DNA of 64,000 nucleotides, from assembly GCF_004010195.1 (NCBI RefSeq), contig NC_057717.1:106329127-106393126 (forward strand), given 5' to 3'. Under the pieces are notes generated by a model. It was not told the DNA's origin. It did not search any database and saw only the letters and a list, made by a program, of their open reading frames with translations. Source of the stretch: Chiloscyllium plagiosum (Eukaryota). This document shows, one piece after another, positions 9,047 to 63,484 of this stretch. Position 1 is the first letter of the stretch. Every line of letters begins with the position of its first letter. A program made the translations under genes and the position numbers.

Positions 9047-9325
9047 CAAGGTTACCAAATCTTTCCATCCTTATCTTTCATCCTCACAGGAAAATACTGG
9101 TCCCTGAATCTTGGTCAACTGGTTTTTAAAAGATTCCTACATGACTTTCTACAATAAACCCACGTTATCTGCATTGTCTTTGATCAATAACTGCTCATTA
9201 ACCCAGCTGTGATCAAGACGAAATTGCATTTGTCTGTTAATCTGTTTTACTCCACTCTGAAGTATCATTCCTTATAAAGCCTGTATCAACCTACATTAAA
9301 TCAGACAGGTTCCACTTATCATCAG

Positions 9326-9535
9326 GAGAAAGTAAGGTCTGCAGATGCTGGAGATCAGAGCTGGAAATGTGTTGCTGGAAAAGCGCAGCAGGTCAGGCAG
9401 CATCCAGGGAACAGGAGAATCGACGTTTCGGGCATAAGCCCTTTCCTGAAGAAGGGCTTATGCCCGAAACGTCGATTCTCCTGTTCCCTGGATGCTGCCT
9501 GACCTGCTGCGCTTTTCCAGCAACACATTTCCAGC
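9326..9535. mobile_element. Short palindromic Penelope-derived insertion with 15-bp TSD
   Basis: TSD tccacttatcatcag at 9311-9325 and 9536-9550; ~86-bp perfect inverted arms; termini resemble the GIY-YIG Penelope at 11-12 kb. Confidence 0.85.
9444..9475 (+). ncRNA. Minimal type I hammerhead ribozyme motif
   Basis: tc-CTGAAGA-a-GGGC(ttat)GCCC-GAAAC-GTC-ga: conserved core, stem II, palindromic loopless stem III, GUC site. Confidence 0.7.
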
Positions 9536-9607
9536 TCCACTTATCATCAGCAATGCCACCCCATGCCGCTGTATTTCTTTAATGCCAGGTCTTGAGTTTA
9601 TACTTAC

Positions 9608-9877
9608 TGTACACTGTGACATACTCTTTCACATCCTTTAGCTGAGGATCCAGACATTTCACAGAACATGCTAGTGTTAAATCCCACTTCTGGACACTTG
9701 GGAAATAGTCATTGTACCAAGTTCTGCCCTTTGTTCTAATGAAATTTACTCCTGGTTTATGTTCCACATTCATTGTTGGTTTTGGACATGTTGTGCTGCA
9801 GTTCATCTCGATGGCACCTCCAAATTCCACGGCTGGGGGGTTTACATCGATTGAAACTTCAAATCCAGTTACAGTGG
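9608..9877 (-). CDS. Gene A exon: ICAM-type N-terminal Ig domain D1 (xTVTGFEVSIDVNPPAVEFGGAIEMNCSTTCPKP...W...LACSVKC...VTVY)
   Basis: Acceptor ttttcttggcag|CC, donor A|gtaagt, 270 nt, phase 1-1. Two C-x3-C pairs are diagnostic of ICAM/VCAM/MAdCAM D1; NCSTTC matches ICAM-2. Confidence 0.85.
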
Positions 9878-10131
9878 CTGCCAAGAAAACAAACCACAGT
9901 AAATACAAACAGACAGAATCCACAAGGCAACATATTGCATGTAACTCACTGACATAATAGTACATTTGAGGACAAAGTTTTTTGAATGCATACTTTAGGT
10001 AGAAGCAGATGATCACTTACTGAGGAGAGGAAGAAGTTAGTTAAACATGAGAGGAACTACAAAGGAATTAGAGAGAGAAATATGGGACAGAAGTTTTCTA
10101 GTGTGACATTTCATGATATAAAGCGACTAAT

Positions 10132-10348
10132 GGGCGGCACGGTGGCACAGTGGTTAGCACTGCTGCCTCACAGCGCCAGAGATCCGGGTTCANNNNNNNN
10201 NNNNNNNNNNNNNNNNNNNNNNNNNNNNNNNNNNNNNNNNNNNTAAGGGGTAAATGTAGGGGTATGGGTGGGTTTCGCTTCGGCGGGTCGGTGTGGACTT
10301 GTTGGGCCGAAGGGCCTGTTTCCACACTGTAATCTAATCTAATCTAAA
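10132..10348 (+). mobile_element. HE1-type tRNA-derived SINE (gapped)
   Basis: A box TGGCACAGTGG, B box GGGTTCA.., (TAATC)n tail. Confidence 0.88.
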
Positions 10349-10403
10349 CTTCAGGGCTGTCTCAATAAGCATGGTTTTCAGAACCATCAGAATGAATGGT
10401 TAC

Positions 10404-10458
10404 CTTTTACCCAGTACTAACTTAATAAATACAGGAGCTGCCACAGAGACATGCCCAT
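10404..10458 (-). pseudogene. Gene A leader (signal-peptide) exon with in-frame stop: MGMSLWQLLYLLS*YWVK
   Basis: ATG at 10458 in gacATGG context, hydrophobic core, phase-1 donor AAG|gtaacc that joins D1 as ...VK-A-TVTG/FEV; TAG at 10417-10419. Confidence 0.65.
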
Positions 10459-10999: not shown

Positions 11000-12058
11000 T
11001 AGGCCGAAAAGGGTGGGGTTGGAAAAGTACAGTTGTCAGGCAGCATCTGAGGAGCAGGAGAGTCGACGTTTCAGGCTTAACAGGGGAGGGGAAAGGGGAC
11101 TGAGAGATAAATATGAGTGGGTGGTAGGGTTGGGGGGGATGGTAGCTAGGAAGACGATGGGTATATGCAGGTGGGGAGGTGATGGTGATAGCTTGGAGTG
11201 GAGGGTGGAGTGGATTGGTGAGAAGGAAGATGGACAGATAGGACAGGTCAACAAGGCAGTGACGAGTTGGATGGTTGGATCTCGGTTGAGGTGGTGGGAG
11301 GGGAGATGAGGAAACTGGTGCAATTGATGTTGATGCCGTGTGATCAGAAGGTCCCAAGACAGAAGATGAAGCATTCTTCCTCCAGGCATTGGGCGGCTAG
11401 GGTTTGGCAGTGGAGGAGGCCCAGAACTTGGGAGAGGAGAGTTGAAGCAATTGGCCACAGGTCAGTGGGGTTGTTTGGTATGTGTCCCAGAGATGTTCTC
11501 TGAAACATTCTACGAGTTGGTATCCTGTCTCCCCAATGTAGAGGAGACCGCATCGAGAGCAACAGACACAGTAGATCAGGTGTTTGGATGTGCAGGAAAA
11601 TCTGTCTGATGTGGAAGGATCTTTTGGGGCCTTGGTTGGAAGTGAGGAAGGAAGTGTGAGCGCAGGGTTTACACTTCTTGCGATGGCAAGGGAAGGTACC
11701 GAGAATGGAGGGTGGGTTGGTGGGGGTCATGGACCTAACGAGGGAGTTGCAGAGAGAATGATCTCTGCGGAATGCTGATAGGGCTGGGGAGGGAAATGTA
11801 TCTCTGGTAGTGGGGTCTGACAGATGGTGGTGGAAATGGTGGAGGATGATGCGCTGTATCCAGAGATTAGTGGATTGGAAGGTGAGGACCAAAGGGATTC
11901 TATCCTTGGTGGGGGAGGCCATGAAATGGCATCAGGAATGCCACTGCTAGACATAAGACTCCAGTAAATGAGAGAGACAGTTTATTTCAGGGGATGGCGT
12001 TTGGTGTAGTAACCACTGAAGCTCTGATCTCCAGCATCTGCAGTCCTCACTTTCTCCT
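11000..12058 (-). mobile_element. Penelope-like element 3' part (GIY-YIG endonuclease region) with inverted terminal piece
   Basis: RIPLVLTF...SAFRRDHSL...GTFPCHRKKCKPC, CLEEECFIFCLGT; typical of the PLE linker and GIY-YIG domain. Confidence 0.85.
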
Positions 12059-12710: not shown

Positions 12711-14699
12711 AGGTCCTGCTTGTGGATAGTTCTCTGACTTGCTGGCAATGATGAAAATCTGGCAGCAGGTCTCTGTCCTATATTCCCTTTATTTTTGTTT
12801 CCAGATTTTGGGCAATATAGCAGTGGAAAATCCAGTTCACAGTGCTACAGCTATCAACTACATCAGAATACAGATAATCTTCTGCATTAAAAAAGTTGAT
12901 TTTGTTGGGATTACATTTCCATCTCACTGTATTATTTAGGTAGTTTTGTAGTTATGTAGTTCTACGTTCTTAGTGTAAAGTGTGATGAAATTATCAGAAA
13001 CAAGCTATAAGTGTTTCGGCATTCTGCTTCTAGCAGAGGGCACCATCTTGTTTTTTGACAATGTTGAAGCTACAAATAGAAGTGCCAAGGGAACTGGTAT
13101 GTGCCGGTACAGTTACAACATTGAAAAGGCAGGTACATGAATAGGAAAAGTTTAAAAGGATATGGGCCAGACACAGGCAAGTGGGACTAGTTCAGTTTGA
13201 GAAACTTGGTTGTCATTGGATAAATTGGACAATTCCTGAAGTGCCAGTGCCCAAAACATTCACTCTCTTGCTTCTCGGATACTACTTGACCTGCTGTGCT
13301 TTTTCCAGCACCACGTTTTTCGACTCTACTTATTTTGTAGACCCACTCTTTGACAGGAAGCCCGAGAAGTTTTGGAGGAGTGATCCGAGAGGAAATGAGA
13401 GGAATGGTGGGCAGGGGAAATAACTGGGCAAAAGGCCAACATTTCAGGATCTCACAGGAAGGTCAACTTTTGCAATTAAGTTTTCCAACCTTAAAGGTGG
13501 ATTGACCTCCCTGACTACAGGGGTCAAGAGGCTTATCTGCATGTATTTCCATTTCATTAAAGCAATGGAATTAAATCCTCAGAATCAAATGCTTGCTCCT
13601 AATTAAGTTCTACCCAATTGAGAAATCCATGTCTTCAGGTACCTAACTGCATATAAGCGACATGCACCCTGGTGAGACTGACTTCTTCCATAACTTTGGA
13701 GTAACATGCTTGCTACTTACAGCTTAAAGTTAAGGTTAGATTATGTTGTGTTGCAAGATCTCTAAGTGGAGCAAAAACAGTATAGAGGAAGAAGGTGGCT
13801 GTAGCTGTGGAGGGGGGGGAAGTAAAGTAGCAAAGGAGAGGGAAAGTCAATGAGGCATTGTTTGGATGTAGAGAGAAAGGAAGATATGTTTATATCCTGT
13901 TAAATTAAGAAATATTTACAGTAGTCTGGATTATATAACACCAAATGATCACTATGCCACCCATGTATATTGAATGTGTCTTTTTCTTTCTTAGCCAACC
14001 ACTGTGCCTTGATGCAGCCCTGATGTCCACAGCTGAAGTGGACCATGTAGATAAATGTGTGGGAATGTGGAGAAGTAAGAAATGAGGGCAATTGTGTCCC
14101 ACATACCTGTCTGCTGCTGCTCTTTCTCCTTGTATATGTGGGTGCAGTCCTTGATTGCTGAACTACATGGTCCTATCCTGCCTGGTGCTCAGCAGGTGCC
14201 TGGTCTTGCACCAAACTTTCTGATAAAGGTTTTGGTGAAGCATGTTTTGATCAAACAGACTGAAGCATCCATGCCAACCAAGGGAGATGCTTGAGTTGGC
14301 TTTGAACTCTGTACCTGAGGAACCATACCAGGGCCTGGTTACTGTACCTAGATTGAATAAGAAATATGTTACTTCAAACGTGTTGCAATCTGGTAACTCA
14401 ATAAGGCTCCTTTGACAGCACTTTGCAAATCCACAACCTCTACCAACTATAAGAACAAGGGTAGCAGACACATGGGAATGCCACCATCAGTAAGTTCCCT
14501 TCAAACTCACATCCCATACAGACTTGGAAATATATATTAGTTCCTTCATCATTACTGTGCATCCAGATGAGCACACCCATTCTGATGCTGCCCTGCTCAC
14601 TGCTGGACAGAATCTGGATATTTTGGAAAAGGGGAATATGGCACTACAATTTTCCAACAGGGACCTGGAGGTCCTTATTGGCACAGTAATGCAAAGGAC

Positions 14700-15510: not shown

Positions 15511-15626
15511 AGTTATAATTTCTTTGAAATTTTGTAGTTTTGTATCAGTCCTGATAAGTTTTTTATCAAAGGCAGACAGAAAAACACTAACAAGAAACTG
15601 ATTTATTGCACATCTTTAGATAGATA

Positions 15627-15770
15627 AAGTTAAAGCTAGTGGATTAGCTACTTAATCCAGCAGCACTCCGAAAGCTTGTACTTCCAAATAAACCTGCTGG
15701 AGTATAAACTGGTGTCATGTGATTTTTAACTTTGTCCACCCAGTCCAACACCGGCTCTGCCACATCATGG
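15627..15770 (+). mobile_element. Short Penelope-type terminal fragment with 13-bp TSD
   Basis: TSD ctttagatagata (15614-15626, 15771-15783); partial hammerhead 3' half ctccGAAAGCTT. Confidence 0.65.
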
Positions 15771-16921
15771 CTTTAGATAGATAGACATTTTTACTGTTCT
15801 CTATGTAGTCATATCTAGGATTGAATAAGTTTTTTGACTGAGTTTGAATTGCATCAAGGAGTTTTGAGAATTTGTAACGAGGCCAAGTGAGTTATCTTGA
15901 CAAATCTTACCAAAGTTGTTTAATTAGCTACTTATCCCACCCTACAGTGTTTTTCACATATAATTTCCACCCCATCATACCATGCAACCTTTCCACAACA
16001 ACTTGAAGTTCTGGCATTCATTGGTATCCCTTTAGTTTGCATCATCTTTAAAAGCCTATTATTCACCTGGACAAGCATTGTTAGTCAGTAGCTGCCCTGC
16101 ACTGTTCCTGACATTTACCCTGGACGTGGTGGATAGGGGGAATTCCACTTTGCAGACAGAGTCCTGGAGATCTTTCTGGACAAGGTGGTGTAGAGATGGC
16201 ACTTCTTCTTCTCCTAGGACCAGCAGTGGAGGTCATGACACCTGAACATGCCAACCTTGTCCAAAGTTGCCACCCAGGTTAATAAAGCCTCATCTATCTG
16301 AAGAAATGCTCAGCACTGTTGAAAGGAAGTCAGTGTTCTTTTCCATTCTGCCGGCATAAGGCCTATCATATTCTGTAATACCTGCATCTCTCACTCATTC
16401 CAGGAGGAAAATAGCCCAAAATCAGGCAGAAAGAGTCTAGACAGGTCATGCGCTGCCTGCCATTTGTCTCCTCGCCCCTTATAGGGTGGGTATTTTAACT
16501 CTGACAGCTCCAAGGAGGACCTGGCCTGGTACTGAAGGCTGCTTTTAGCTTACTGTGCTGGGATCCTTGAGCAAAGGCCCTTGGCTTGACTGACACTGCT
16601 GACAACCATAAAAAAAACCTGACTTTTTTTTGTATGCTAAACACCAAGGCAGGACAGAAATAATATGACCCTGATCTCTCTGATTGAGGGAACACAAAAG
16701 CAAGGCATATTCCTGTGGTCACTTTGACAGCCAATAAAGAACCTGGAATGTCCCTGAGCGCGCAACGTCTTTCCTGCAGTATTACAGTCCTGGTTGCTGA
16801 TGCAGCTTGTGATTACCATCCAAGTACAGAAGTGTCATGTAAGTGAATGAGAAATGTGCTGTGTGGGTTTTAGAAGCAGGCACACATCAGAGATCATTGT
16901 CTGTGGATGTGAAGCTTTTCA

Positions 16922-28725: not shown

Positions 28726-28727
28726 GA

Positions 28728-34568: not shown

Positions 34569-35410
34569 TATAAACAGGAGATTTCGAATCTCAATTCAGG
34601 TGACTGATTCTGAGCTAGCTGGTCACAGTGAGTGTACTAAAAAGGAAAAGAAAAAAGAACAGTATAAACATCGCATTCAGAATCTCCTCAGTTCAGGGAC
34701 TGACTCTGAGCTGGCTGATCACAGCCAGTGTAGTGTGCACACATAAATAATGGGTGACTTGGTGACAGGATTCCAGCCTCTGTGCAATTATATCAGTGGA
34801 GACAAGAGAAAACAATACATGCCTGAATATAATTTGTTTAAAACAGTCGTCTTTCAGTTGGGGTAAGCATTTTATTTTGAAAGCTTGATTCATTCAATTT
34901 TGTCATCAAAGATTAGGCCCAGTATTTGGCTGTTTGAGAACCAGGGGCATCCATATCGAGATTTTTGATGAGGTTAAGACAACTGGCAGAGACATTGGTT
35001 AACCCTGAATGATATGCTGAGAGACCATTTGGTATGTGGCATTCATGAGGTAACCCTGCAAAGTACCTACTAACTGAAGTCCAACTGGACTTCAAACAGG
35101 CACTACAACTGGCTTTGTCATTAGAAAATGCAGCATGGGAGTTAGAGGGCATCCCAACGAAAGTGAACACTTGTCCAACAGAGGTTGGGGAAGAGCACTT
35201 GAGTGTAGGCAATCACAGTGACTCAAGCAGGGCATGAGAGCAGAAGGACCCTTGGTCAGTCCACAGCAAAGCTGAGCCTTGGCCAGATGGCTGAAAAGTT
35301 ATTCAAGATCTGGACTGGCAAGCCATTGTAGTTGTTGCTGGTATGTGGGCTTGAGACAGCAAAGGAGCCCTATGAGACCTGAGTAAGAAAACTCAGACCA
35401 GTATCCAGGA

Positions 35411-35872
35411 GAGTTGAGACTGTGTTGCTGGGAAAGCACAGCAGGTCAGGCAGCAGCCAAGGAGCAGGAGAATCGACGTTTCGGGCATAAGCCCTTTGTC
35501 AGGAATGAGGCTTGTGGGCCAGGACTGAGAGATTAATGGGAGGGGGGTGGGGGAGGGTAAGGTAGCTGAGAAAGCGATAGTCGGATGAAGGTGAGGGAGA
35601 AGGTGATAACTCAGAGATGGGAGTGATAGACAGGCCCGGAGGGTGGTGCTGAGTTGGAAGCTTGGGACTGGGATAATGTGGGAGGAGGGGAAATGAGGAA
35701 GCTGTTGAAATCCACATTTATCCAATGTGGTTGCAGGGTCCCAAGGCAGAATATGAGGCGTTCCTCCTCCAGGCATTGGGTGGTAACGGTTTGGTAGTGG
35801 AGGATGTGCAGGACCTGTATGTCCTTGACGGAGTTTGAGGGGAAATTGAAGTGTTCAGGCATGGGTTGGTGG
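35411..35872 (-). mobile_element. Penelope 3' fragment nested in Gypsy, with mutated hammerhead
   Basis: CLEEERLIFCLGTLQP; cattcCTGACAAagggcttatgcccGAAACGTC on the minus strand. Confidence 0.85.
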
Positions 35873-38800
35873 GTGCACACTCTGGAAAGTCCACCTTTTT
35901 GTGGTTTGGAACAGTTAAATTGTACCACAACATCCAAATCAGAATCAATTAAAATAAATGTCTGGTTAAATGGTCACCCGGTTCTCATTGAGGTTGATGT
36001 GTCAGTGGTTACAGAACCAATCTTTAACAAGATTTCCTCTGGGCCTAGGTTTGCGCAAGACCTCGGCCAGATTGAGAACAGTCACCAGGGAACTGTTACA
36101 CACTAAGGGTACGACATTGGTTCTGGTCCCCTATAAGAAGTAATCACTGATTGTTGGAAGAAGCTCAATCCTGTTGGAGCAGAATTGGTTGAGAAAGATC
36201 GACCTAGATTGGCTCAACATTTTGCAATTAGAAAATAGCTGCCTGAATGAAGTTCTAATGAAATAGCCAGGAGTTTTTCAGAAAGAGGTTGGGACTATCA
36301 AAGGAGTCAAGGCCATTTTATATGTTGACCAGGAAGCAATTCCACAGTTTTGCAAGGCCTGCCCAGTGCTATTTGCCTTACGGGCAAAAGAAGAGGTAGA
36401 AATCAGGAGGCTGGAGAGCGAGGGAATCATCAAATCAATGCAGTTTGTGGAATAGGCAACAGTGGTTGTATAGATTGTGAAGTTTGACGGCTCCGTTCGC
36501 CTTTGTGAGGATTTGAAGAAAAGCGTAAAACACTTCTCACAGCTGGATATATACCCAATATTTTGCATAGAGGTTTTGTACATAAAATAGGTAGGGAGGG
36601 GCCATGCCACCTTCAGTTATGACTAAATGAGGAGTCCCAGAAGTATGCCACAATTAATTCACATGGGAGTTTGTACCAATAAACAAGACTACCATTTTAG
36701 ATAATATCAGCCTTAACCATTTTCAGTGGACCATGGAGAACATATTACAAGGACTACCCTGGGTTTCCTTTTATCTGGATGACTTGCCAATAACCAGGAT
36801 GACCAATAAAGAGCACTTGGAGAATTTGGACGTAGTGCCTAAACATTTCTCCCGGGCAGGTTTATGCATTAGAAGGAAAAAATGAGAGTTCCATGTGCTC
36901 CAAGTGACCTATTTGGGCTACAGAGTCAACAAATCTGGGTTACACTCATTGGAAGATAAAGTGAGAGTGATCAGATGTGCCCTGGTTCCCACGCCTCTAC
37001 CAGAGCTTAGGTACTTCCTTGGGTTAGTGAATTATTATGGAAAATTCAAATGTAACCTGGCTTCCATCGTTGCACCTTTACAACTGTTGAAAAAGGGTCA
37101 GCCTTGGAAATGGTCACACAGCCAAAAAGTAGCCTTTGGGGAAGTGAAAAAGCAGCTATTGTCATCTAAGGTGTTAACCCACTACAATTCAAAGCGAGAG
37201 GTAGTGCTGACATGCGATGCCTCCCCATATGGTACCTGGGTAGTGTTGGCTCACGAGTGGCCCAACGGAGAGGAATATCTGATAGTGTTTGCTCGCCAGA
37301 CTTTGGCTGATGCTGAACACAAATACATCCATATAGAGAAGGAAGGTATGGCAGTCATTTTTGGTGTGAGGAAGTTCCACCTTTACGACATATATTTGTC
37401 ATCGTGAAGGGCCACAAACCCTGATAGAGCTACTTAAAGAAGGCAAGGCCATGTCACCCATAGCTTCTGGTCAAATTCAACAGTGGGTCCTTTTTCTCAG
37501 TGGGTACCATTACTACTTGGAATACCGTCCAAGAGGCCAAGTGACAAATGTGCATGCTTTCAGGCACCTCCCACTGGCAGATACTCCTCTGGTGGTGCTT
37601 CCCCTGGAAGAGTCCATTCTGGTTTTAAACTTTCTGGGCACCCTTCTCGTCACCATTGACAATATCCGATTCTGGACACAGAAAGATCCCATCCTTGCAA
37701 AACTAAAACAGCTCTTGGTAATGGGAAACAAAAGGGCCATCTCAACCAGGATTGAAATCTTTCTGGACTTGGTGAGACCAGATCAGCGTAGAGAATGACA
37801 TATTACTATGGGAGCTAGAGTGATTGTCCCAAGTAAAGATCACGGCCAGATACTGGCTGAACCCCACCTGGGTCATCCAGGGATTTCCAAAATGAAGATG
37901 TTGGCAAGGAGTTATGTCAGGTGGCCAACATAGCTGTGTTGGTGGGGCAGTACCCAGAGTCCCACAAGGCCAATTCAAAGTGGTTAGGCATGCAGAGAAT
38001 TCATTTGGTAAATTCAGGGATGATGAGTGAAAAGCTGTGAGCTTTGTTTGTGATACATGGACTCCTAGTTAAGGACAATGTGACATCATTTACCAGCAGG
38101 AATTTGAGTATTTCCTAAAGCCAAATGGCATTTGGCCTGTTCATACAGCTGCATACCATCCATCGTCCAGTGTTCTGGAGGAAAGAGCAGTCCAAATGTT
38201 GAAGGCAGGTTTAAAGAAACAGCCGATAGCTTCACTTGATACCAACTTGTCCTGGTTACTGTTCGATTATGGGACCATCCCTCAGGCAACACCAGGGTTG
38301 GGTCCAGCAGAGTTGCTGATACGGAGAAGATTCCACACAAGGTTAAAGCTGATATTCCCAGACCTGGAGGTCAGGCTGAAACAGCAGTAAGAATGTCAAT
38401 GCCTGCCACATGCCTCCTCTAAGCAAATTTATTTCAGGTGAAGACATTTGGTGCTGGAACCACGGAAATGGCCTGACATGGGTATGGGACAAGGTCAATG
38501 CAATGTCAGGTCCTATGACAAACAATGTTTGGGTAGGTGAGGGGGTCCTGAACAAATGTGGGTCACCTGAAAGCTGCCAGTATGCAAACGGTGCAGGTGC
38601 AAAATATACCTGGCCCCTCAGAACAGCCAGAAAAGAGTGAGAAATTGTGAGTTGCTCCCCCTTGTCTAATATCGAGGAAACCTCAAAGTCTGAGGTGGAT
38701 TCAGTCTCAATACTGTTACTGCTGGAAGAAACTCTCCCAGATGCTGCAGACATAGGAGGCAGACTATGGTGTGGCACACACACCCATTTCCATTCAGAAG

Positions 38801-44787: not shown

Positions 44788-45361
44788 CATTGTAGACTGT
44801 GAGGAGAACAATGTCAAGGTCATTTATAAGGCTGAAGTAGGCAGATGGGTGACAGAGGCAGTGGCACATTGGTATACAGTTGGCAACAAGTTGTCCTGGG
44901 AGGCTCCAACATTGACTGTGGACCCCAGAAAATGACACAACATTTGGTCAAACATAGACAAGGAAACCTCCTGCTGATGACCATAATCCCCTCCTGTTCT
45001 GAATTTGTACTCCTCCATCTTGAACATCATTTAGAGGAAGCACTGAGGGTAGCCGGGTGCAGAATATACTGTGGGTGGGACACTTCAATGTCCATTGCCT
45101 AGAGTGACTCGGCAGCATCACCACTGACTGAGCTGTTCAAGTACTAAAGGACATTGCTGCTAGACTGGGTCTGTGGCAGGTCAAGAGAGAACCAACAAGA
45201 GGAACAAGCAAACTTGACCTCATCTCCACCAATTCGCCAGCTCCAGATCAGTCTCTGCAAGACAGTGATCACCATGCAGTCCTTGTGGAGACAAAATGCT
45301 GTTTCACAGTGGGGATACCCTTCATCGTGTTGTGGGCTCCATTACTGTACTAAATGGGATA

Positions 45362-45660
45362 CATGACTTGGAGGTGCCAGTGTTGGACTGGGGTGGACAA
45401 GGTTAAAAATCACAAAACACCAGGTTATAGTCCAACGGGTTTATTTGGAAGCACTAGTTTCAGAGCGCCGTTCCTTTATCAGGTGGTTGTGGAGAATAAG
45501 ATCATGATTACAGAATTTATAGCCAAGGGAGTCCAGTGTTACAGAGATGTGATACATTAAACAATTTTAGGTTAAGTCTTTCATCTGTTAGAATGGGATA
45601 TGCCGGTTTCTGTTCTTTGATATGTAAAACCCAGAACTTCTTTTAAATTACATAAATTTC
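45362..45660 (-). mobile_element. Penelope-type terminal fragment (same family as 60188-61056)
   Basis: Shares aaaaatcaca..acaccaggttatagtccaac; decayed hammerhead on the minus strand. Confidence 0.65.
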
Positions 45661-49017: not shown

Positions 49018-49305
49018 ACAGGACATGGAGGGTTTCAATCTGTTGTTTTATAACAGGGCTTGTCATTGACTGATCTTGAAGTTTCAGTTCAGCTTCACAG
49101 ATATACTGCTGTCCATCCAGCTTAACTTGAGCTTCTACTGTATGAGAGATAGTGAGCCCAGTACTGCTTGATCCATTCACTAATGTGTCATTTCCTTTCT
49201 TCAGTCTGAGTTCAAGATCCCCTGAGACTTTTAACACAAGGCATGTAATATTAACCAGATTTCCTTCCTGGCTGGTTGGTACTTGGATTTCAGGGGAAGA
49301 GAAAG
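49018..49305 (-). CDS. Gene B exon: Ig domain D4 (xFSSPEIQVPTSQEGNLVNITC...DGQQYICEAEL...LHVL)
   Basis: Acceptor tattatttttag|CT, donor T|gtaagt, 288 nt, open frame, both cysteines present. Confidence 0.85.
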
Positions 49306-52720: not shown

Positions 52721-52903
52721 TATATTATTAAGACTCAGCTTGGCAAAAAAAGAAAGTTATTCAAAATACTGTAGGCCACCACTATCAAACTATGGTTTGC
52801 ACATGCTCTGGCTGACTTAAAGCAAACATTTACATTTACTGGATATTTGCACCATAATACAAGATAAGTTTTTTTTGTAATATCTTGAGCAATTGGAACT
52901 CAC

Positions 52904-53218
52904 CGTAAGTTTGCAGTGTGACAGAAGAGTTTGTGATTGACTTTGTGGTATTAGAGCCCAAGTCCACTTCAGCCAAGCAGGTGTACTCCTGTCCATCATC
53001 TGATCGACTCGCAACGAAATTGAAGACATTTCTCAACCTTTTATCTTCATCCGGAAGACCTAGTTCACCTGTGGAATCTCTCTGGACAATCTCACTCCCT
53101 CTCAGCCATGTGAGAATGAGTTTGTTGTTTGCATAGACTCTTGGGCCAATGCACTCCAGACGATATGTTCTGTTAATCTCCAGTACTTCAGGAAGTACTG
53201 TAATGCTTATCTCTCGAT
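52904..53218 (-). CDS. Gene B exon: ICAM D2-like Ig domain (xREISITVLPEVLEINRTYRLEC...LTWLRG...GQEYTCLAEVDL...VTLQTY)
   Basis: Acceptor ctcctttaacag|AT, donor G|gtgagt, 315 nt, open frame. C...W-L-R-G...Y-T-C-x-A-E-V-D-L resembles ICAM-1 D2 (LLRG...FSCRTELDL). Confidence 0.85.
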
Positions 53219-53538
53219 CTGTTAAAGGAGAATCACAGTTAACAAGTTTCACTGAAATAGTGTACCTGAGGACCATGTTCTATCTCCTCACACATTTACT
53301 CAGATACATAAGAGATGTAAGTGTGTATGTATTCAACAAAAGGTTACTAAAATACTTGAACAGAGGCCAGTATCCTGTCACCAAGTCACCCTTTATTTAC
53401 ACATGGAGACTAATCCATCTCCGTCAGGGCCAGCTCTCAGAGTGATCAGAACCTCTGACACTCCTGTTTATACCTGTCAGCCACAGCTCCCTGATTGGAC
53501 CAGATAAAGAGCCCTAATCAGGGAACTCATTCTATGAT

Positions 53539-53771
53539 ACCCAGAAACAAAAATCAAGATTGCTGGAAAAACTCAGCAGGTCTGGCAGCATCTATGGAGA
53601 CAAATCAGACCTAATGTTTGGGGTCAAGTGACCCTTTCCCTATTCTGAGGAAGGGTCATTTGACAGGAAATATTAACTCTGATTTCTCTCCACAGATGCT
53701 GCAAGACTTGCTGAGCTTTTCCAGCAATTTTGATTTTTTTTCTGATTTACACCATCTGCAGTTGTTTCAGT
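53539..53771. mobile_element. Palindromic Penelope-derived insertion (family 2) with 9-bp TSD
   Basis: TSD ttctatgat (53530-53538, 53772-53780); inverted arms; decayed core CTGAGGA-agggtca..tgac..GAAA. Confidence 0.7.
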
Positions 53772-55184
53772 TTCTATGATGTCCACCTGGCTGACCTCAT
53801 TACAATTATTACATCCCTCCCTCTTTATTTTCCTCTTTAGGTGGCAAAGGCATTGAGACAGTGACATCCACCTCAGATTTTGTAGTACCTTAAATGCTTA
53901 ACGGAGACAGAGACCCCATGGGTTTTTGAACAGTCAGAAAGGCAGTGAAGAGCAGGGCACATTTTGCTCCTGCAATGTTTGCAGCTTTCATATGATCCAT
54001 GTACTTGTTCAGGACTGTTGCACCTACCCAAACCTTAGACATCACTGGACCTGACCTTACATTGACTGTGACTCCAGCGCATTCAAGGCCATTCCCACGG
54101 TTCCTACACCAAACTTTGAGCCCTAAAGTAAACTGTCTCTCTCATTTAGTGGAGCATTGTGTCCAGCATTGATGTTTCTGATACCATTTCACCCTCCCCT
54201 CAAGACTAGGAAGATCAGGTTTAACCTGTTGTGGAGTCTTCTACCCATTAGCAACTCTGCTGGAGCTATCCCTGTAGTTGCATGAGGGATGGGTCGATAG
54301 TCAAACAGGAACTGGGACAGTTTGGTATCGAGTGAAGCTGTAGGCTATTTCTTTTAGCCTGCCTACAAAATTTGAAATGTTTTTTTCTGCCATACCATTG
54401 GATGATGGAATGGCTCAGAGCTGTCTTATGTGATGCATATCATTCGGCTTTAGGAAATAGTCAAGTCCCCTGCTTGAAATGATAGTCTGTTATCTGTGAC
54501 CAACATCTCGAACAGTCCACGTATTGTAAAATATTTGCAGTACTCTGTCATCATCCATGTGTAAGACAAATTAACTCTACACATATCCAGCCATTTTGAG
54601 TGGATATCCAAAAAGACTAAGGACATTGAGCTCATGACAGGAGCCGCATAGTCAAAGTGTAACCGAGTCCAGTGTTTACCCAACCATTTGCACAAATGTG
54701 GGGAGTGCTTTTGGTCATTTTTGTCCTTGTGTGTATTGCCCCACCAATGCAGCTTTGTCTGTATCCAATCCTCCAATCCAATAACTTCTCATCAATGTCT
54801 TCATTTTGGAAACCCTTGTACACCCCTGTGGAGTTCAGTCAGTATCTTGGTGCTGACCCTTGCTACGGACAACCACTCTTGCTCCCCATAATAAAATGCT
54901 GTCCTCGACTGTGATCTGATCTCTCTAGGTCCAGAAACATTTCAATTCTGATTGTGATGGCCCTTTGGCTTCCCCCCCATCACCACCAGCTGGTTCAGTT
55001 TTGCCAGGACTGGATCTTTGTCCAGAGTCTGATATTGTCAGTTGTGACTGGAAGTGTGTCCAGAAAGTTTAATACCAGAGTGGACTCTTCTTGTAGTGGT
55101 CCCACCGGTGGTGTACCTTCCAGCAGGAGGCGGTTCAGTGCAACTACATTTGCTCCTTGGCCTCCCAGACAGTGTTCCAACCTG

Positions 55185-55494
55185 TAGATTAGATTAGATT
55201 ACTTACAGTGTAGAAACAGGCCCTTCGGCCCAACAAGTCCACACCTACCCGCCAAAGCGCAACCCACCCAGACCCATTCTTCTACACCTAACACTACGGG
55301 CAATTTAGCATGGCCAATTCACCTAACCTGCACATTTTTGGACTGTTGGAGGAAACCGGAGCACCCAGAGGAAACCCACACAGACACTGGGAGAATGTGC
55401 AAACTCCACACAGTCAGTCGCCTGAGGCAGGAAATGAACCCGGGTCTCTAGCATTGTGAGGCAACAGTGCTAACCACTGTACCACCGTGCCGCC
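55185..55494 (-). mobile_element. HE1-type SINE, full length
   Basis: tRNA-like head at 55494, (TAATC)n tail at 55185. Confidence 0.88.
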
Positions 55495-55558
55495 AATATA
55501 ATTAGAGCCCACCACTGAATTCAGTCTGAAGCTGTGAGCAGCACTGCCTTGTCCTCTT

Positions 55559-55769
55559 CAGTTAAAAATCACACTACACCAGTTTATAGTCCAACAGGTT
55601 TATTTGGAAGTACTAGCTTTCAGGTAACTAGTGGGGCAGGATCATAATTTGTAGCTATAAGGGGCAGCACTCTGAAAGCAAGTACATCCAAATAAATCTG
55701 TTGGGACTACAACCTGGTGTTGTGTGATTTTTAATGTAGTCCTCCCAGTCCAATACTGACACCTCCACA
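55559..55769. mobile_element. Palindromic Penelope-type insertion (family 3) with 12-bp TSD
   Basis: TSD ccttgtcctctt (55547-55558, 55770-55781); inverted arms. Confidence 0.7.
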
Positions 55770-56133
55770 CCTTGTCCTCTTTAAGTAGACCTAGAAGGGT
55801 TTGTGGTCTGTTAATATTACAAATTTATGTCTGTCAAGGTATTGGTGGAACATCCTGACTCCAAACGTGACTGCTAAACCTTCATTCTCCATCAGGGCAT
55901 ACAGGGAAGCACCGCATGTCAGTACCAGATCCTGTTTAGAATCTTAATGTTTCTTACAGGAATTACCTGTTTCTTGGCTTCCCTGAAAGCTACGGCTTGG
56001 CTACATGACCATTTCTGAGGCTGACCCTTTTTAAAGAGTTGATTCCAAAGGTGCCAGGATGGAGGCCACATTGTGTATCAACTTTCCGGAATAGTTCACC
56101 AGCCCAAGGAAAGACCGAAGCTCTGATACTGAG

Positions 56134-58360
56134 GTGGGAATAAATTGGGAACAGGGAAATGCGTTCCTGAAGAAGGGGCTTATGCCCGAAACGTCGATTC
56201 TCCTGCTCCTTGGATGCTGGCTGACCTGCTGTGCTTTTCCAGCAACACATTTTTCAGCTCTGATCTCCTGCATCTGCAGTCCTCACTTTCTCCCAACAGG
56301 GAAATGCAGAACAGAAATGTGGAAGTTGTTTAGGAAGCACTTGCTGATAATACTGGATAGCTTTGTATCATTGAGGCAAGGAAGGGATGGTAGAGTGAAG
56401 GAAATTTGGATGACAAGAAATGTGGAACATCTAATCGAGCGGAAGAATGAACCTTACTTAAGGTTGAGGAGGCAAGGATCAGACAGGGCTCTAGAGAGTC
56501 ACGAGGTAGCCAGGAAGGAACTGAAGAATGGACTTAGGAGAGCTAGAAGGGGGCATGAACATGCTTTAGCGGGTTGGATTAAGGATAACACCAAGGAATT
56601 CTACACTTATGTGAGGAACAAGAGGATGGCCAGTGTCAGGGTAGGGCTGATCAGGGATAGTGGAGGAAACTTGTGCCTGGAGTCAGAGGAGGTAGACTGA
56701 GGACCTTGATGAATACTTTGCTTCAGTATTCACTACTAAGGGGGTCCTTCTCATTTGTGAGGACAACGTAAAACACGCTGATATGCTTGAACAGGTTGAT
56801 GTTAAGAAAGAGGATGTGCTGAAAAGTTTGAAAAACATAAGGATACATAAGTCCCCTGGGCCAGAGATGGCATATACCTAAAGTCAGTACAGGAAGCAAG
56901 GGAAGAGGTTGCTGTGTCTTTGGCGATGAAGTTTGCGTCCTCACTATCCAGTGAAGTAGTACTAGATGACTGGAGGGTGGCAAATGTTATTCCCTTGTTC
57001 AAGAAAGTGAATAGGGATAACTCTGGGAATTACAGATCAGTCAGTCTTATGTCTGTAGCAAGCAAATTATTGGAGAGGATTCTGAGAGACAGGACTGATG
57101 ATTACTTGGAAAACCATAGTTTCATTAGAGATAGCATGGCTTTGTGAGTGGTGGGTCATGCCTCACAAGCCTTTTTGAAGGATGTGACAAAACACATTGA
57201 TGAAGGTAGAGCAGTGGATATGGTGTATATGGATTTTACCAAGGCATTTAAAAGGTACCTCATGATAGGCTCATTCAGAAAGTAAGGAGGCATGGGAAAC
57301 AGGGATATTTGGCTGTCTGGACACAGAATTGGCTGGCCAATAGAGGACAGAGGGTGGTAGTTGATGGACAGTGTTCAGCCTGGAGCTAGGTGACTAGTGA
57401 TGTTCCATAGGGATCGGTTCAGGGACTCTGCTCTTTGTGATTTTTATAAATGACTTGGTGAGGAAGTAGAAGAGTGGGTTAGTAAGTTTGCCAATGACAT
57501 GACTGTTTGTGGAGTGGTTGATAGTTTGGAGGGCTGGTGTAGTTGCAACGGGACATTGACAGGATGCAGAGCTGGGCTGAGAAGTGGCAGATGGAGTTCA
57601 ACCTGGAAAAGTATGAAATTATTCATTTTGGAAGTTCAAATTTGAATACAAAATACAGGATTAAAAGCAGGATTCTTGGCAGCGTGGAGGAACAAAGGAA
57701 TCTTGGGGTCTATGTCATAGATCCCTCAGATTTGTCACCCAAATTGATAGGGTTGTTAAGAAGTTACACGGTGTGTTGCCTTTCATTAGCAGGGGGATTG
57801 AGTTTAAGAGCTGTAAAGTTGTGCTGCAGCTCTGTAGAGCCCTGGTTAGACCACATATGGAATATTGTGTTCAGTTCTGGTCGCCTCGTTATCGGAAGGA
57901 TGTGGAAGCTTTATAGAGAATGCAGAGGAGATTTACCAGGATGCTGCCTGGACTGGAGGTCATGTCTTATGAAGAAAGGTAGAGAGTGCTAGGGCTTTTC
58001 TCAATGGAGTGAAGAAGGATGAGAGGTGACTTGATAGAGGTGTACAAGACGATGAGAGGCATAGATAGAGTGAGTAGTCTGAGAATTTTTCCAAGGCCAG
58101 AAATGACTATCATTAGGGGCATAATTTTAAGGTGATTGGAGATGTCAGAGGTAGGTTATTTACACAGAGACTGGTGAGTGTGTAGAGTGCACTGTCAGCA
58201 ATGGTAGTAGTGTCAGATATATTAGGGACATCTAAGTGACTCTTGGATAGGCACATGGATAATAGTGAAATGAAGGGAATGTAGGTTAGTTTGATCTTCC
58301 AGGTCGGCACAACATCGAGGGCTGAAGGCCTGTACTGTGCTGTACTGATCTATGCTCTCT
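56134..58360 (+). mobile_element. 5'-truncated CR1 (RT + 3' UTR)
   Basis: ORF2 motifs throughout. Confidence 0.9.
56163..56294 (+). mobile_element. Short Penelope terminal insertion with hammerhead motif and 13-bp TSD
   Basis: TSD aacagggaaatgc (56150-56162, 56295-56307); ttcCTGAAGAaggggcttatgcccGAAACGTCga. Confidence 0.8.
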
Positions 58361-58364
58361 GTAA

Positions 58365-59520
58365 ATCAAGTGAGACACAATTTCTCAACCACCAAGCCAT
58401 GTTGACTATCCCTAATCAGTTTTTGCCTTTCCAAATGCGTGTAGATCCTGTCCCTCAGAATCTCCTCCAACAACTTGCCCCCCATTGACGTAAGGCTCAT
58501 CAGTCTATAATTCCCCACTTTTTCCTTACTTCCTATTCTTAAATAATGTCACCACATTAGTCAACCTCCAGTCTTCCAGTGCCCCACCCTATTGATGATA
58601 CAAATATCCAGACTGTAGGGATTCTATCTCAGCAAGGGACCCTGTAAACTGTTTCGTGGCTCCCCACAAAGTTCTGCGATACACTTGATCAGGTCTCAGG
58701 GATTTATCTGCCTATATAAATTTAAGACCTCTAGCACATCTTCTTCTGTAATGTTAACTCTCTCCAAGACATTTGCCAAAGCTATCACTTGTCCCCCTTT
58801 TGCCCTCCTGATTTCCTTCCTATTGCCCTCATACTAGTCTAGGGATTCACTCGATCCCAGCTGTCTATACCTGACATATGCCTGCTTTTCCTAACCAGAG
58901 CCTCAATTTCTCTACTCATCCAGCATTCCCTACACCTACCAGCCTTGCCCTTTGCACTAACAGGAACTGTCTCTGAACTCTTATTACCTTTTTTTTAAAG
59001 CCCTTACACTTTCCAACCATCCCCGTACTGGAAATAATGATCTCCAATTAATCTTTAAAAGTTTCTCTGTAATACCATCAAGATTGGCCTTGCCCTAACT
59101 TAAGACTTTAACTTTTTGATCAGTTCTATACTTTTTTATAACTGTTTTAAGACAAATAAAATTATGATCACTTGCTTCAAAGTGCTCCTCCACTGACACC
59201 TCAGTCACTTGCCCTGCTTTGTTTCCTAACAGGAGGTCAAATATTACTCTTTCTCTAATAGATACATGCACATGTTGAATAAGGATGTTTTCCTGTACAC
59301 ACTTAAATTCCTCCCCATCTAGGCACTTAACACAATGAGAATCCTAGTCATTTCGCCATTCCTGATGAAAGGCTTTTGCCTGAAATGTTGATTCTCCAGT
59401 TCCTTGGATGCTGCCTGACGTGCTGTGCTTTTCCAGCACCACACTCTCTAATCTCCAGCATCTGCAGTCCTCACTTTTGACTATGAGAAAACCTAGTCAA
59501 TGTTTGGAAAGTTAAACCTG
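58365..59520 (-). mobile_element. Old CR1 ORF2 fragment
   Basis: Similar to 5470-6700 with deletions. Confidence 0.75.
59351..59482 (+). mobile_element. Short Penelope terminal insertion with hammerhead motif
   Basis: cattcCTGATGAaAGGC(tttt)GCCTGAAAtGTTga; imperfect TSD atgagaa..cctagtca. Confidence 0.75.
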
Positions 59521-59632
59521 TTTCTATCATCCTTTCAGATAGTGACTTCCAGTTACCCACCATCCACTCTCTGGTGAAGAAAATATGCCTTAAATCACCT
59601 CTCCTGAGAGGATAAATTTCTTCCCATCTCCT

Positions 59633-59960
59633 TTAGATTAGATTCACTACAGTGTGGAAACAGGCCCTTTTGCCCAGCAAGTCCGCACCGAACCTCTTAA
59701 GAATAACCTACACAGACCCAGTCCCCGACCCTACATTTACCCTAACTAATGCACCGAACACTATGGGCAATTTAGCATGGCCAAGTCACCGAAACTGCAC
59801 ATCTTTGGATTGTGGGGGGAAACTGGAGCACCTGAAGGAAACCCACGCAGACACAGGGAGAACGTGCAAACTCTACTTAGACAGTCACCCAAGCCTGGAA
59901 TCAAACCCAGGTCCCTGGCACTGTGAGGCAGCAGTACTAACCACTGAGCCACCATGCCAC
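59633..59960 (-). mobile_element. HE1-type SINE
   Basis: tRNA-like head and (TAATC)n tail. Confidence 0.85.
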
Positions 59961-60187
59961 CCCAAATTTATTTATGCCCCCCAATTGTGTACACCTCAAC
60001 CAGGTCCCCATTCAGTCTTCTGTGCTCTAAGGAAAACAACCCCAGCCCACCTTGTCTCTTTTCATCACTGAGTTGCTGTAGTCTAGGCAACATCCTGCTG
60101 AATCTCTTCTGCACCCCCTCCAATGCAATCACATCTTTCCAATAGTGTGGTGACCAGAACTGAACTAGCTGTGGCCTAACTAGTGTT

Positions 60188-61056
60188 AAAAATCAGACAA
60201 CACCAGGTTATAGTTCAACAGCTTTATTTGGAAGCACGAGCTTTTGGAGCATTGCTCCTTCATCAGGTAGCTAGTGGGGTAGAATCATAGGACACAGAAT
60301 TGAGAGTAAAAGATCAAAGTGTCATACAACTGATGTGATATGTTAAACAAACCTCAATTGCTGTTCAGTCATTAATCACTTTGAATGGGGATGCACATAA
60401 CCTTTTAGAAATAACATAACCTTTTAGAAAAGAAAAGTGACATCTCAGCTCAGACAATGCATTAAAGGTGTGAGGTTAGAGTCTGTCTGTATCCCAAACT
60501 TGAGTCAGACTGATTTTGTTTCCATAGTAATTTATAAAATCCTACATGGACTGACTGTCTACAGACTTTGTGCTTTTTCAGCAAAATAGAATGTGTCCGC
60601 AAATATAATTCTGCAAAAGCAAATTTACCCTACAGACTTATATGTGTGTGTGCGTGCATATGAGGGAGAGAAAGTATGTGTGGGAGAAAGAGGGAAAGAG
60701 TGTGTGAATGAATGTGCATGTGTGTGAGTGTGTGTGTCTGTATTTGTGCATGCTTAATACAGTGTGTGTGTGAGTGTGATGGAGTATGTATCTGTGAGAG
60801 GGTGTGTGCACATCTGAGAGAATGTGTGTGGATGAGAGAGTGTCTGCATAAGTGTGCGTGATCGTGTAAGAGTGTGTATATATTTGTTCAATACATTGCA
60901 TCAGTTGTATGACACTGATCTTTTACTAAAATTCTGTGTCCTATGATCCTGTCTCACGAGCTGATGAAGGAGCAGCGTTGTTGGCTATTACCTGGTGTTG
61001 TGTGATTTTTAACTTGTTCACCCCAGTCCAACACCAGCACCTCCACAGCATGGCTT
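60188..61056. mobile_element. Penelope-type non-coding insertion (family 3) with inverted termini, TG-rich tract and 9-bp TSD
   Basis: TSD actagtgtt (60179-60187, 61057-61065); CTGATGAaGGAGC cores on opposite strands near each end. Confidence 0.7.
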
Positions 61057-61935
61057 ACTAGTGTTGGAAACAGCTCCATCATAACCTCACTGCTCTTGTA
61101 TTCAATGCCTTGAATAATAGAGGCAAGTATCCCATGTGCCTTCCTAACCACCTTATCTACCTGCCATGTGGCTTTCAAGGATTTAAGAACATCTGCACCA
61201 AGGTCCCTCGGATCCTCTGTATGTCGGGTCTGACCATTCACTTGCCTTGTTAGTCTACCCAAAATGTATAATCTCACCGTTTTCAGGATTACATTTCATT
61301 TGCCATTGTTCGGCCTGTTTTGGATCTTCTTTATTATACTGTAATCTAAGACTTTCCTGTTTATTATTTACCACACCACCAAACAAACATACTGATCATA
61401 ACTTCTGCATTCATGTTTAGATCATCACCTTACACAACAAACAGCAAAGGACCCAGCACCAGTTCCTGTAGAACCCCACTGGACACAGGTTTCCAGTCAC
61501 TAAAATTCTTCAACCACCAGCTTCTCTTCTTATCACTGGCCGATTTTGGAGCCATTTGCCAAATTGCCCTGGATTCCGTGGGCTCTGATATTCTTGGGCA
61601 GGGTGTGAGCATTCTGAACCTCCAACCCTCTACACAAGCTTGATAGTTACTACTGAACACTCTCTCTACCCGATAAACGCAACCACTGGGATGGCAAATG
61701 TCTCCATTTGTGATTTTAAAACCATGTTTTCCTGTTGTTTGAAAGTCTGATATTTCATTCTGTCTTGATCTCATGTGTACTTCCCAATCATTTATTTTCA
61801 TTTGTCTAAAATGTTAATGAAAATGAAAAATCCCCTCTTGTTAAACTCTCGGGTGTAATTTCTGGTGAGGAGTGGTCTGTGGCTGTATTTGACTGAGATT
61901 AACTACATACCGTACTGGATGCCGTCACTGTTGCT

Positions 61936-62035
61936 GGAAAGTCCCCGGACTGTTCCGCGGACGGAGCGAGGTCACTCCAAGGACAGGAGAACATTCTTGG
62001 GGAAAGTTTCAGTCCAGCTCAGTGGGGAATGCCCC
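61936..62035. promoter_or_regulatory. NF-kB site cluster (copy 1)
   Basis: GGGACTTTCC (minus, 61936-61945), GGGGAAAGTTTC (61999-62010, imperfect) and near-palindromic GGGGAATGCCCC (62024-62035) within 100 bp of CpG-rich unique sequence. Confidence 0.6.
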
Positions 62036-62050
62036 TCACTTTGCCGTTAC

Positions 62051-62354
62051 CTGAGCCACTCATAACCGTGTCCATCTTTATTACCGAGGATTTCTACCGC
62101 AGTATTCAATACTGAACGGAACAGACGGATTCTTTACATAGTGGACAATGACTGGTTCATGTCCAGGATTTGCTCCGTGTGTGTGTGTTGGGGCAGTTTG
62201 AACAGACAGTTGGAATTGCTGCTCCCGGGATGGTACACCGGCAGCAACTCAGCACCGTCAGGTCTAACAGCACCGGAACAGCAGAAACCACACTGATACA
62301 ACTGACTGAACTCAACGGAGCCCAGAGCTCTGCGATCTCTGCTCGAGGGACGGT
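62051..62354 (-). other. Candidate CpG-rich first exon / promoter, ending in donor CAG|gtaacg
   Basis: Visible CpG enrichment relative to the window and a plausible donor at 62051. The only phase-1 ATG frame is MDTVMSGS, which is not a signal peptide. The 5' limit is a guess. Confidence 0.35.
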
Positions 62355-62368
62355 GAAGAGAGTCGAGA

Positions 62369-62491
62369 TTCTGGATTAGTGGTGCTGGAAGAGCACAGCA
62401 GTTCAGGCAGCATCCGGTCCTCAGCTGTGCTCTTCCAACACCACTAATCTGGAATCAGGTTTCCAGCAACTGCAGTCATTGTTTTTACCTA
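62369..62491. mobile_element. Palindromic Penelope-derived mini-insertion (family 4) with 14-bp TSD
   Basis: TSD gaagagagtcgaga (62355-62368, 62492-62505); inverted arms; no hammerhead core retained. Confidence 0.7.
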
Positions 62492-63484
62492 GAAGAGAGT
62501 CGAGAGCCTGGGCTGGGTGTGGGGTTATAGAACCCCACTTCCAGCTAACCCATCAAACATTTCAGCGAACGTACGAAGCCTCACAGCACCTCCACAGCAT
62601 GGCTTACTAGTGTTGGAAACAGCTCCATCATAACCTCACTGCTCTTGTATTCAATGCCTTGAATAATAGAGGCAAGTATCCCATGTGCCTTCCTAACCAC
62701 CTTATCTACCTGCCATGTGGCTTTCAAGGATTTAAGAACATCTGCACCAAGGTCCCTCGGATCCTCTGTATGTCGGGTCTGACCATTCACTTGCCTTGTT
62801 AGTCTACCCAAAATGCATTAGCTCACCGTTTTCAGGATTACATTTCATTTGCCATTGTTCGGCCTGTTTTGGATCTTCTTTATTATACTGTAATCTAAGA
62901 CTTTCCTGTTTATTATTTACCACACCACCAAACAAACATACTGATCATAACTTCTGCATTCATGTTTAGATCATCACCTTACACAACAAACAGCAAAGGA
63001 CCCAGCACCAGTTCCTGTAGAACCCCACTGGACACAGGTTTCCAGTCACTAAAATTCTTCAACCACCAGCTTCTCTTCTTATCACTGGCCGATTTTGGAG
63101 CCATTTGCCAAATTGCCCTGGATTCCGTGGGCTCTGATATTCTTGGGCAGGGTGTGAGCATTCTGAACCTCCAACCCTCTACACAAGCTTGATAGTTACT
63201 ACTGAACACTCTCTCTACCCGATAAACGCAACCACTGGGATGGCAAATGTCTCCATTTGTGATTTTAAAACCATGTTTTCCTGTTGTTTGAAAGTCTGAT
63301 ATTTCATTCTGTCTTGATCTCATGTGTACTTCCCAATCATTTATTTTCATTTGTCTAAAATGTTAATGAAAATGAAAAATCCCCTCTTGTTAAACTCTCG
63401 GGTGTAATTTCTGGTGAGGAGTGGTCTGTGGCTGTATTTGACTGAGATTAACTACATACCGTACTGGATGCCGTCACTGTTGCT

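Follow-up and report, generated by a model that had tools for sequence, protein, structure and literature searches.

What are the short insertions built around a minimal hammerhead ribozyme that are scattered over a 64,000-nt stretch of Chiloscyllium plagiosum DNA (contig NC_057717.1, positions 106,329,127–106,393,126; hereafter the window), and what determines where they end? Their target-site duplications (TSDs), their colinearity with copies bearing an open reading frame (ORF), the two kinds of 3′ end, the geometry of the fold-backs and the clustering of 5′ ends upstream of the ribozyme core were directly observed. We consider it rather probable that the insertions were made by the enzyme of a Penelope-like element (PLE), which would prime internally on its RNA, often on both target strands, the copy likely ending at the start of the transcript.

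Insertions derived from Penelope-like elements

A sequence-only reading of the window had listed eight insertions flanked by TSDs of 9–16 bp, and all eight are confirmed. Six of the TSDs are exact (9311/9536, 15 bp; 15614/15771, 13 bp; 53530/53772, 9 bp; 55547/55770, 12 bp; 56150/56295, 13 bp; 62355/62492, 14 bp) and two are imperfect: that of insertion 59351 (59335/59482, about 16 bp with one small indel, 8 bp exact) and that of insertion 60188 (60176/61054, 12 bp with one mismatch, 9 bp exact). As a control, an exact repeat of at least 8 bp was found in 1 of 284 random site pairs. The size first given, mostly 120–235 bp, holds for seven insertions (123–233 bp) and fails for 60188, which at 866 bp is not tiny. 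Profile searches built from the arms, which gave no decoy match in the window, revealed four further insertions of the same families (11003–12058, 13232, 35393–35880 and 45362–45591). The set thus numbers 12 insertions; the profiles recovered 18 of their arms, and a nineteenth, a 16-nt stub at 15627, was recognized by eye (Table 1). TSDs, variable in length (9–16 bp), flank 9 of the 12; at 11003, 13232 and 35393 one was sought and none found.

The Penelope origin proposed by that reading is borne out by ORF remnants on the longer copies. In two long family A copies the module adjoins the end of a PLE ORF (11907–11254, E = 9e-46; 35871–35641, E = 7e-20; tblastn with shark proteins as queries). 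The closest proteins to a repeat ORF of the window are those of whale shark and zebra shark, and one matching shark protein combines GIY-YIG and reverse transcriptase (RT) matches with a cysteine linker motif. The Zn-finger-like cysteine motif of the linker between RT and endonuclease, present in the 11344–11931 ORF and in its closest matches, characterizes the Neptune and Nematis clades (Craig, 2021; PMC8557442), and the parent ORF appears to be of Neptune or Nematis type. No RT domain remains in the window copies, and their decayed ORF pieces were not recognized by Pfam, their identity being obtained through homologues. Short family A copies are colinear with the module at 35393 and share 84–93% identity with it. 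Judged from these alignments, the insertions represent the terminal-repeat module of endonuclease-bearing PLEs. As a separate observation, the terminal residues of a zebra shark gene model (P0002) seem to resemble a translated ribozyme core behind the GIY-YIG domain.

All positions within the module are numbered with C3 of the ribozyme core as +1, the predicted cut lying after +28. The ribozyme layout that had been ascribed to all insertions is complete in two of them: CUGANGA and C-GAAA-NN-UH occur together in 2 of the 15 arms overlapping the ribozyme, at 9446 (insertion 9326) and 56167 (insertion 56163). In 53539, 59351 and 60188 CUGANGA is kept and the 3′ half mutated, in 15627 and 55559 CUGANGA is missing, and 62369, starting at +45/+61, lies entirely downstream of the ribozyme. 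Rfam yielded no match in the window at its gathering score, and none of the 19 matches at E ≤ 10 was a hammerhead. The boxes of the minimal motif (G10.1-C11.1 and the palindromic 15.2–16.2 pair) are nevertheless recognizable in families A, B and C, whose stems I, II and III vary together; stem III reads ACGU, ACGU and AGCU, respectively (B and C being read from decayed copies), and stem I of family A has just 2 bp plus U-U and A-U. A pattern scan outside the window, in which stem II was set by the search pattern, gave at least 128 matches at at least 123 loci. Among the matches listed, 42 of 48 distinct stem I types pair at each of three positions, against shuffle means of 34, 25 and 22, and none of 5,000 shuffles reached 42 (kinship among loci uncorrected); 356 of 378 stem I cells pair in register, versus 84–152 when slid, and position 17 is other than G in 126 of the 128. 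Stem I covaries in these matches, and the sequences support a real minimal type I hammerhead motif, as had been proposed. In folding predictions with one or two copies the active form did not come out as the lowest-energy structure, and solo modules were predicted to fold about as well as shuffles (z about 0).

One of the stem II variants first put forward as a paired family, AGGC/GCCT, was rejected as true covariation: it occurs in a single copy (59351) in which the CpG sites at +20, +25, +28 and +65 are all TpG, and decay is therefore more likely. Separately, family C fold-back arms (55559, 15627 and the right arm of 60188) carry small deletions in or beside the ribozyme stems, possibly template slips or losses of hairpin centres.

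Head-to-head fold-backs make up six of the eight insertions first listed (9326, 15627, 53539, 55559, 60188 and 62369) and, with 11003, seven of all 12. One arm ends in a tail of 30–40 nt that is absent from the other, so that both tail-bearing and tail-less 3′ ends occur among the window copies. The same two ends recur in contigs of two DNA runs, the tail-bearing end 35410 in 286 and 280 contigs and the tail-less end 35421 in 374 and 363. In six of the seven fold-backs (9326, 11003, 15627, 55559, 60188 and 62369; the exception is 53539) the tail-less arm reaches further upstream, and therefore it is not a snap-back copy of a single tail-primed cDNA. This asymmetry favours two priming events over one self-primed cDNA; as a route to fold-backs, self-priming with an antisense strand as template (Arkhipova, 2013; PMC3846280) retains some chance.

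Outside the window, an inverted arm lies shortly upstream in 21 of 113 matches examined. TSD candidates were noted at 33 of 102 matches, a count that has no chance control; those used were at least 10 bp long and not microsatellite. AT-rich, unrelated loci (L005, L033, L040, L072, L087, L088 and others) show TSDs of 10–14 bp, fold-backs, solo copies starting from -3 to -39, and 3′ ends of two kinds, separated by about 50 nt. The insertion plan, as far as these sequences indicate, is not shark-specific.

The 5′ ends and a probable transcript start

It had been suggested that truncations tend to stop near the ribozyme. This can now be sharpened: the distribution of breakpoints is non-uniform, and the ends gather at the upstream edge of the ribozyme, not at its cut site. 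Ten of the 19 arms end between -13 and +8, namely those of 9326 (-3 and +6), 56163 (-3/-4), 59351 (-5 to -11), 13232 (-4), 53539 (about -7 and +8) and 15627 (-7 and -11) and the tail arm of 55559 (-7). Ends of the remaining nine lie at about -24, -85, -109, -370 and -600, beyond -800, at +45 and +61, and at about +92; ends of family B and of the long copies were taken from alignments and TSDs. No arm ends within 10 nt of the cut site. Of the 13 arms ending between +100 and -13, ten fall in that 22-nt stretch, -13 to +8 (binomial 4e-5, the stretch being picked post hoc).

Four public runs were also aligned to 35380–35900, the partly aligned contigs numbering 6,523 and 7,086 (DNA of two organisms). 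Figures for loose ends are those of the rows listed, six per run (1,080 others). The loose ends are long, AT-rich and heterogeneous; those at 35496 (581 and 669 contigs) retain in their consensus ten further letters of the element and reach -4. Others lie at 35506 (257 and 286 contigs) and at 35507 (163 contigs, run X1), and 6 of the 12 joint rows listed start at 35505–35508. This pile-up 4–5 nt upstream of the core is a cluster and not the full distribution. The A of a match to YYANWYY, which we take to be the Initiator consensus, falls at -4; 1.2% of window positions match it, and the 138 nt upstream hold three further matches, so that the support it lends to a transcript start is modest.

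A mechanism that could produce such ends is suggested by the Anolis PLE. In vitro, its reverse transcription begins at two internal sites bounding the tail, both target strands are cut and extended, 5′-shortened templates give shorter products, and ribozyme mutants insert normally (Frangieh, 2024; PMC11167929). Two internal starts together with extension of both strands predict the two 3′ ends and the fold-backs with one tail-bearing and one tail-less arm. We propose that the enzyme of the parent element primes at two internal RNA sites 30–40 nt apart, frequently on both target strands, and that two separately primed cDNAs, one tail-primed and one tail-less, would join into a fold-back. When the module primed is one that leads the transcript, the cDNA would run off at the start of the RNA after 95–130 nt. 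As run-off at the RNA start would end the cDNA there, the DNA ends at -4/-5 make a transcript start at this point, just before the hammerhead, likely. The ribozyme would then be a passenger whose cleavage does not fix the insertion ends. In published elements the ribozyme lies at the ORF start (Anolis; Frangieh, 2024; PMC11167929) or ends an intron whose beginning is 46 nt from the start site (D. virilis; Cervera and de la Pena, 2014; PMC4209133). As a general cause of the cluster, splicing to an acceptor at the edge of stem I, as in D. virilis, was rejected because 45362 and most outside families have no AG there and because the loose ends have no common first exon; AG does occur at -9/-8 in 35393 and at -6/-5 in two family C copies.

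Several results weigh against this explanation. Families B and C and that of 62369 have no link to an ORF within the window; PLE ORF remnants occur at 46 of the 123 outside loci listed; the module precedes an ORF N-terminus in none of the 128 outside matches listed (compared with the N-termini of long PLE proteins); and a protein search with the translated module gave no match. The 35393 reference matches poorly at 35524–35640, so truncations there are under-counted, and some RNA reads clipped at 35496/35510 run into the body of related subfamilies. RNA run X21, with 2,165 reads on both strands, shows no pile-up of read ends, and in X22 no reads aligned; the library is poly(A) single-cell and blind to cleaved ends, so these runs count neither for nor against cleavage. 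Evidence for a cap-derived G is mixed: the first loose letter at 35506 is a sense G in both DNA runs, and it is absent in the 35496 rows. Ordinary truncation is required too for the ends at +6 to +8 (two arms), at +45/+61 and at -85 or beyond (five arms). Finally, 11 outside solo copies with repeats of at least 10 bp start anywhere from -3 to -39 (no chance control).

Alternative explanations of the ends

The alternative that survives best, which we regard as unlikely while taking it seriously, is that 5′ truncation is of the ordinary kind, is heavy and has its hot spot where the ribozyme begins, caused by RNA structure, a bound protein, microhomology or cutting of the intermediate by the endonuclease and not by the transcript start. 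Long and short copies coexist within one family, ends are also found at +6 to +8, +45, +61, -24, -85 and -109, and small intra-ribozyme deletions are common in fold-backs, all as truncation would have it. A structural stall, however, should occur at the 3′ side of the ribozyme, which RT would meet first, and the predicted folding of solo modules is no stronger than that of shuffled sequences. As for the endonuclease, family A has ATT at -4, a motif preferentially cut by the Anolis enzyme (Frangieh, 2024; PMC11167929), but family C and most outside families have no ATT at this place.

The sequence-only reading had also offered independently mobilized ribozyme retroelements. Solo copies starting at -4 would be self-propagating non-autonomous units that borrow the PLE enzyme, as SINEs (short interspersed elements) do with LINEs (long interspersed elements). 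The sharp 5′ boundary with its Initiator-like site fits this idea, as does the excess of module over ORF end in summed contig depth (8.0M vs 0.93M and 13.4M vs 0.82M) and in RNA reads (1,828 vs 38), figures which are not copy numbers. In rotifers, pLTR (pseudo-long terminal repeat) sequences are enough for mobilization in trans (PMC3846280), and PLE-derived non-autonomous units have been proposed in print. Yet the short copies are colinear with the ORF-bearing ends, no two of those in the window have identical ends, complete cores are missing in 13 of the 15 ribozyme-overlapping arms, and tandem monomers are absent from the 17 tandem-repeat rows of the window. Nor does the head resemble that of a SINE transcribed by RNA polymerase (Pol) III: no B-box match was found in the eight short inserts, and the copies begin at the ribozyme. 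The proposal is therefore not supported as a general account of the insertions, and for the solo copies starting at -4 independent mobility seems improbable to us.

A bolder combination, which we hold to be something of a long shot, would make the 130-nt module a complete minimal retroelement, one that carries two internal priming sites and is transcribed by Pol II from a point 4 nt upstream of the hammerhead. The first bases of its transcript would form stem I of the ribozyme, two RNAs would pair through the palindromic stem III and serve jointly as templates on the two target strands, and solo copies would seed subfamilies of their own. If true, the head-to-head fold-backs would be explained and the ribozyme would be a dimerization clasp.

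That cleavage by the ribozyme sets the inserted unit, a cleaved or circular RNA serving as template as for retrozymes, is very improbable. The core and stems are conserved and covary across families, and circular templates have been suggested for PLEs (Cervera and de la Pena, 2014; PMC4209133); against this, all 19 arms end more than 10 nt away from the cut site, the loose-end rows listed include none at that site, units with one ribozyme could not be excised at both ends, and insertion in vitro is unchanged by ribozyme mutants (PMC11167929). A retrozyme reading was likewise rejected, none of the 17 tandem-repeat rows of the window overlapping an element. Scarcely credible, in spite of the hairpin shape and the TSDs, is that the fold-backs are DNA transposons with terminal inverted repeats, like miniature inverted-repeat transposable elements; this was rejected because the inverted repeat is offset by a one-sided tail of 30–40 nt, TSDs vary from 9 to 16 bp, some copies are solo and one-armed, and the arm sequences correspond to the ends of RT/GIY-YIG elements.

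Genomic setting and comparison with known systems

The window has a G+C content of 42% and seven N runs. The insertions most likely sit in introns, as judged from minus-strand exon-like ORFs with ICAM_N and Ig domain matches (Table 1). These exons likely belong to two tandem genes, because an N-terminal-domain exon lies downstream of the remaining exons. Insertion 56163 is antisense relative to the host gene. Insertion 9326, located 57 nt into the intron behind an ICAM-like exon, is very young, and its arms are 100% complementary across 86 nt. A transcript would contain a perfect 86-bp hairpin (9326–9540, predicted -196.7 kcal/mol) 57 nt past the splice donor, in which the ribozyme core is predicted to be buried; such a hairpin would likely be a substrate for editing or small-RNA processing and could influence the host transcript.

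Table 1. Features of the window, in coordinates counted from its first base; ends are given relative to C3 of the ribozyme core.
Feature	Coordinates	Strand	Details
ICAM/VCAM-like immunoglobulin gene exons	9607-9870, 39599-40090, 49010-49357, 52836-53279	minus	ICAM_N (E 5e-8), Ig domains
Family A fold-back	9311..9550	both	210 bp + 15-bp TSDs; minus tail-bearing arm ends +6/+7; plus tail-less arm starts -3, complete core at 9446
Complete minimal hammerhead core	9446..9473	+	Stem II GGGC/GCCC; stem III ACGU, without loop; cut predicted 3′ of C 9473
Older long family A copy	11003..12058	-	Tail-less, ribozyme decayed; linker + GIY-YIG ORF remnant 11907-11254; at 12020-12058 an inverted arm consisting of the tail alone
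Family A-type solo copy	13232..13330	+	Decayed, tail-less, starts -4
Family C copy	15614..15783	+	144 bp + 13-bp TSDs; tail-bearing arm from -7, CUGANGA lost; preceded by 16-nt inverted stub
Long family A copy	35393..35880	-	GIY-YIG C-terminal remnant 35871-35641, then untranslated 3′ part; A of the Initiator-like site is -4 (35506); C3 at 35502; one core substitution; tail-less end about 35421
Family C solo copy	45353..45600	-	230 bp + 9-bp TSDs; tail-bearing, starts about -109
Family B fold-back	53530..53780	both	233 bp + 9-bp TSDs; arms 85% complementary, core decayed; tail arm on plus, starting about -7; other arm lacks the tail and ends about +8
Family C fold-back	55547..55781	both	211 bp + 12-bp TSDs; intra-ribozyme deletions in both arms
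Family A solo copy	56150..56307	+	132 bp + 13-bp TSDs; tail-bearing, starts -3/-4, complete core at 56167
Family A-type solo copy	59335..59499	+	About 131 bp + imperfect 16-bp TSDs; tail-bearing, starts -5 to -11, CpG-decayed core
Family C fold-back	60176..61065	both	866 bp + 12-bp TSDs (one mismatch); long minus tail-less arm, core at 60266 (one substitution); short plus tail arm from about -85, internal deletion
Fold-back of further related family	62355..62505	both	123 bp + 14-bp TSDs; no ribozyme, arms start +45 and +61

Other repeats are abundant in the window. Numerous decayed RT fragments, presumably LINE-like, dispersed short repeats of about 220 bp and ORF pieces whose motifs suggest LTR retrotransposons (1188–6622, 17000–29800, 36886–38900, 41884–43102 and 55272–59961) were noted. 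A 30-nt purine-rich tandem array at window positions 1–480, weakly similar to the 11003 element in its 3′ untranslated part, is probably a piece of another PLE cut by the window edge. A tandem duplication at 61035–64000 (period 1,549; 1,414 of 1,417 compared bases identical) starts within the tail of the 60188 element and contains at 63904 a second copy of the 62369 element; it is either a recent event or an assembly artefact.

The ribozyme closely resembles the minimal hammerheads of PLE pLTRs (PMC4209133): CUGANGA followed by one extra base, a short stem II with G10.1-C11.1, GAAA, a loopless palindromic stem III and a short stem I. In metazoan PLEs these are mainly single motifs in truncated copies, with some opposite-strand pairs 100–700 bp apart; unlike the present analysis, the available part of that account has no map of 5′ breakpoints, and one of its supplements no shark term. 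We found no paper in which 5′ ends are mapped to the upstream edge of the ribozyme, and some supplements may already show it. Retrozymes of the non-LTR type, reported from one cartilaginous fish and defined by tandem ribozyme-bearing units and circular RNAs (Cervera and de la Pena, 2020; PMC7229834; Li, Clavereau and Pollet, 2026; preprint 10.64898/2026.07.22.740005), are likewise non-coding, with a type I hammerhead, large TSDs and kinship to PLE pLTRs, whereas in the window the copies stand singly or head to head and their cores are minimal and for the most part decayed.

Complex PLE insertions, which consist of an inverted 5′-truncated copy and a tail of 30–40 bp (Craig, 2021; PMC8557442; Arkhipova, 2013; PMC3846280), have the same head-to-head arms, one-arm tail, TSDs of 9–10 bp or longer and solo pLTRs. 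In the window, unlike in those insertions, both arms are often shorter than 130 nt, and their asymmetry argues for two primings. With Poseidon of Anolis (PMC11167929) the insertions would have in common a tail bounded by two RT starts and the extension of both strands; its ribozyme, near the ORF start, is dispensable for insertion, and the main text reports no cluster of 5′ ends. The ORF of the window differs from Poseidon by its cysteine linker. The ribozyme, the tail, the inverted copy, the large TSD, the solo pLTRs and PLE-derived non-autonomous units are thus all already in print. The stubs offer a natural record of reaction ends that bears on how PLE insertion is completed and on the role of the hammerhead, and what they add to the known systems is the gathering of 5′ ends at the upstream edge of the ribozyme and an arm asymmetry favouring two priming events: a useful, modest and as yet unproven mechanistic clue, from which simple predictions follow for cap analysis of gene expression (CAGE) and for PLE insertion in vitro.

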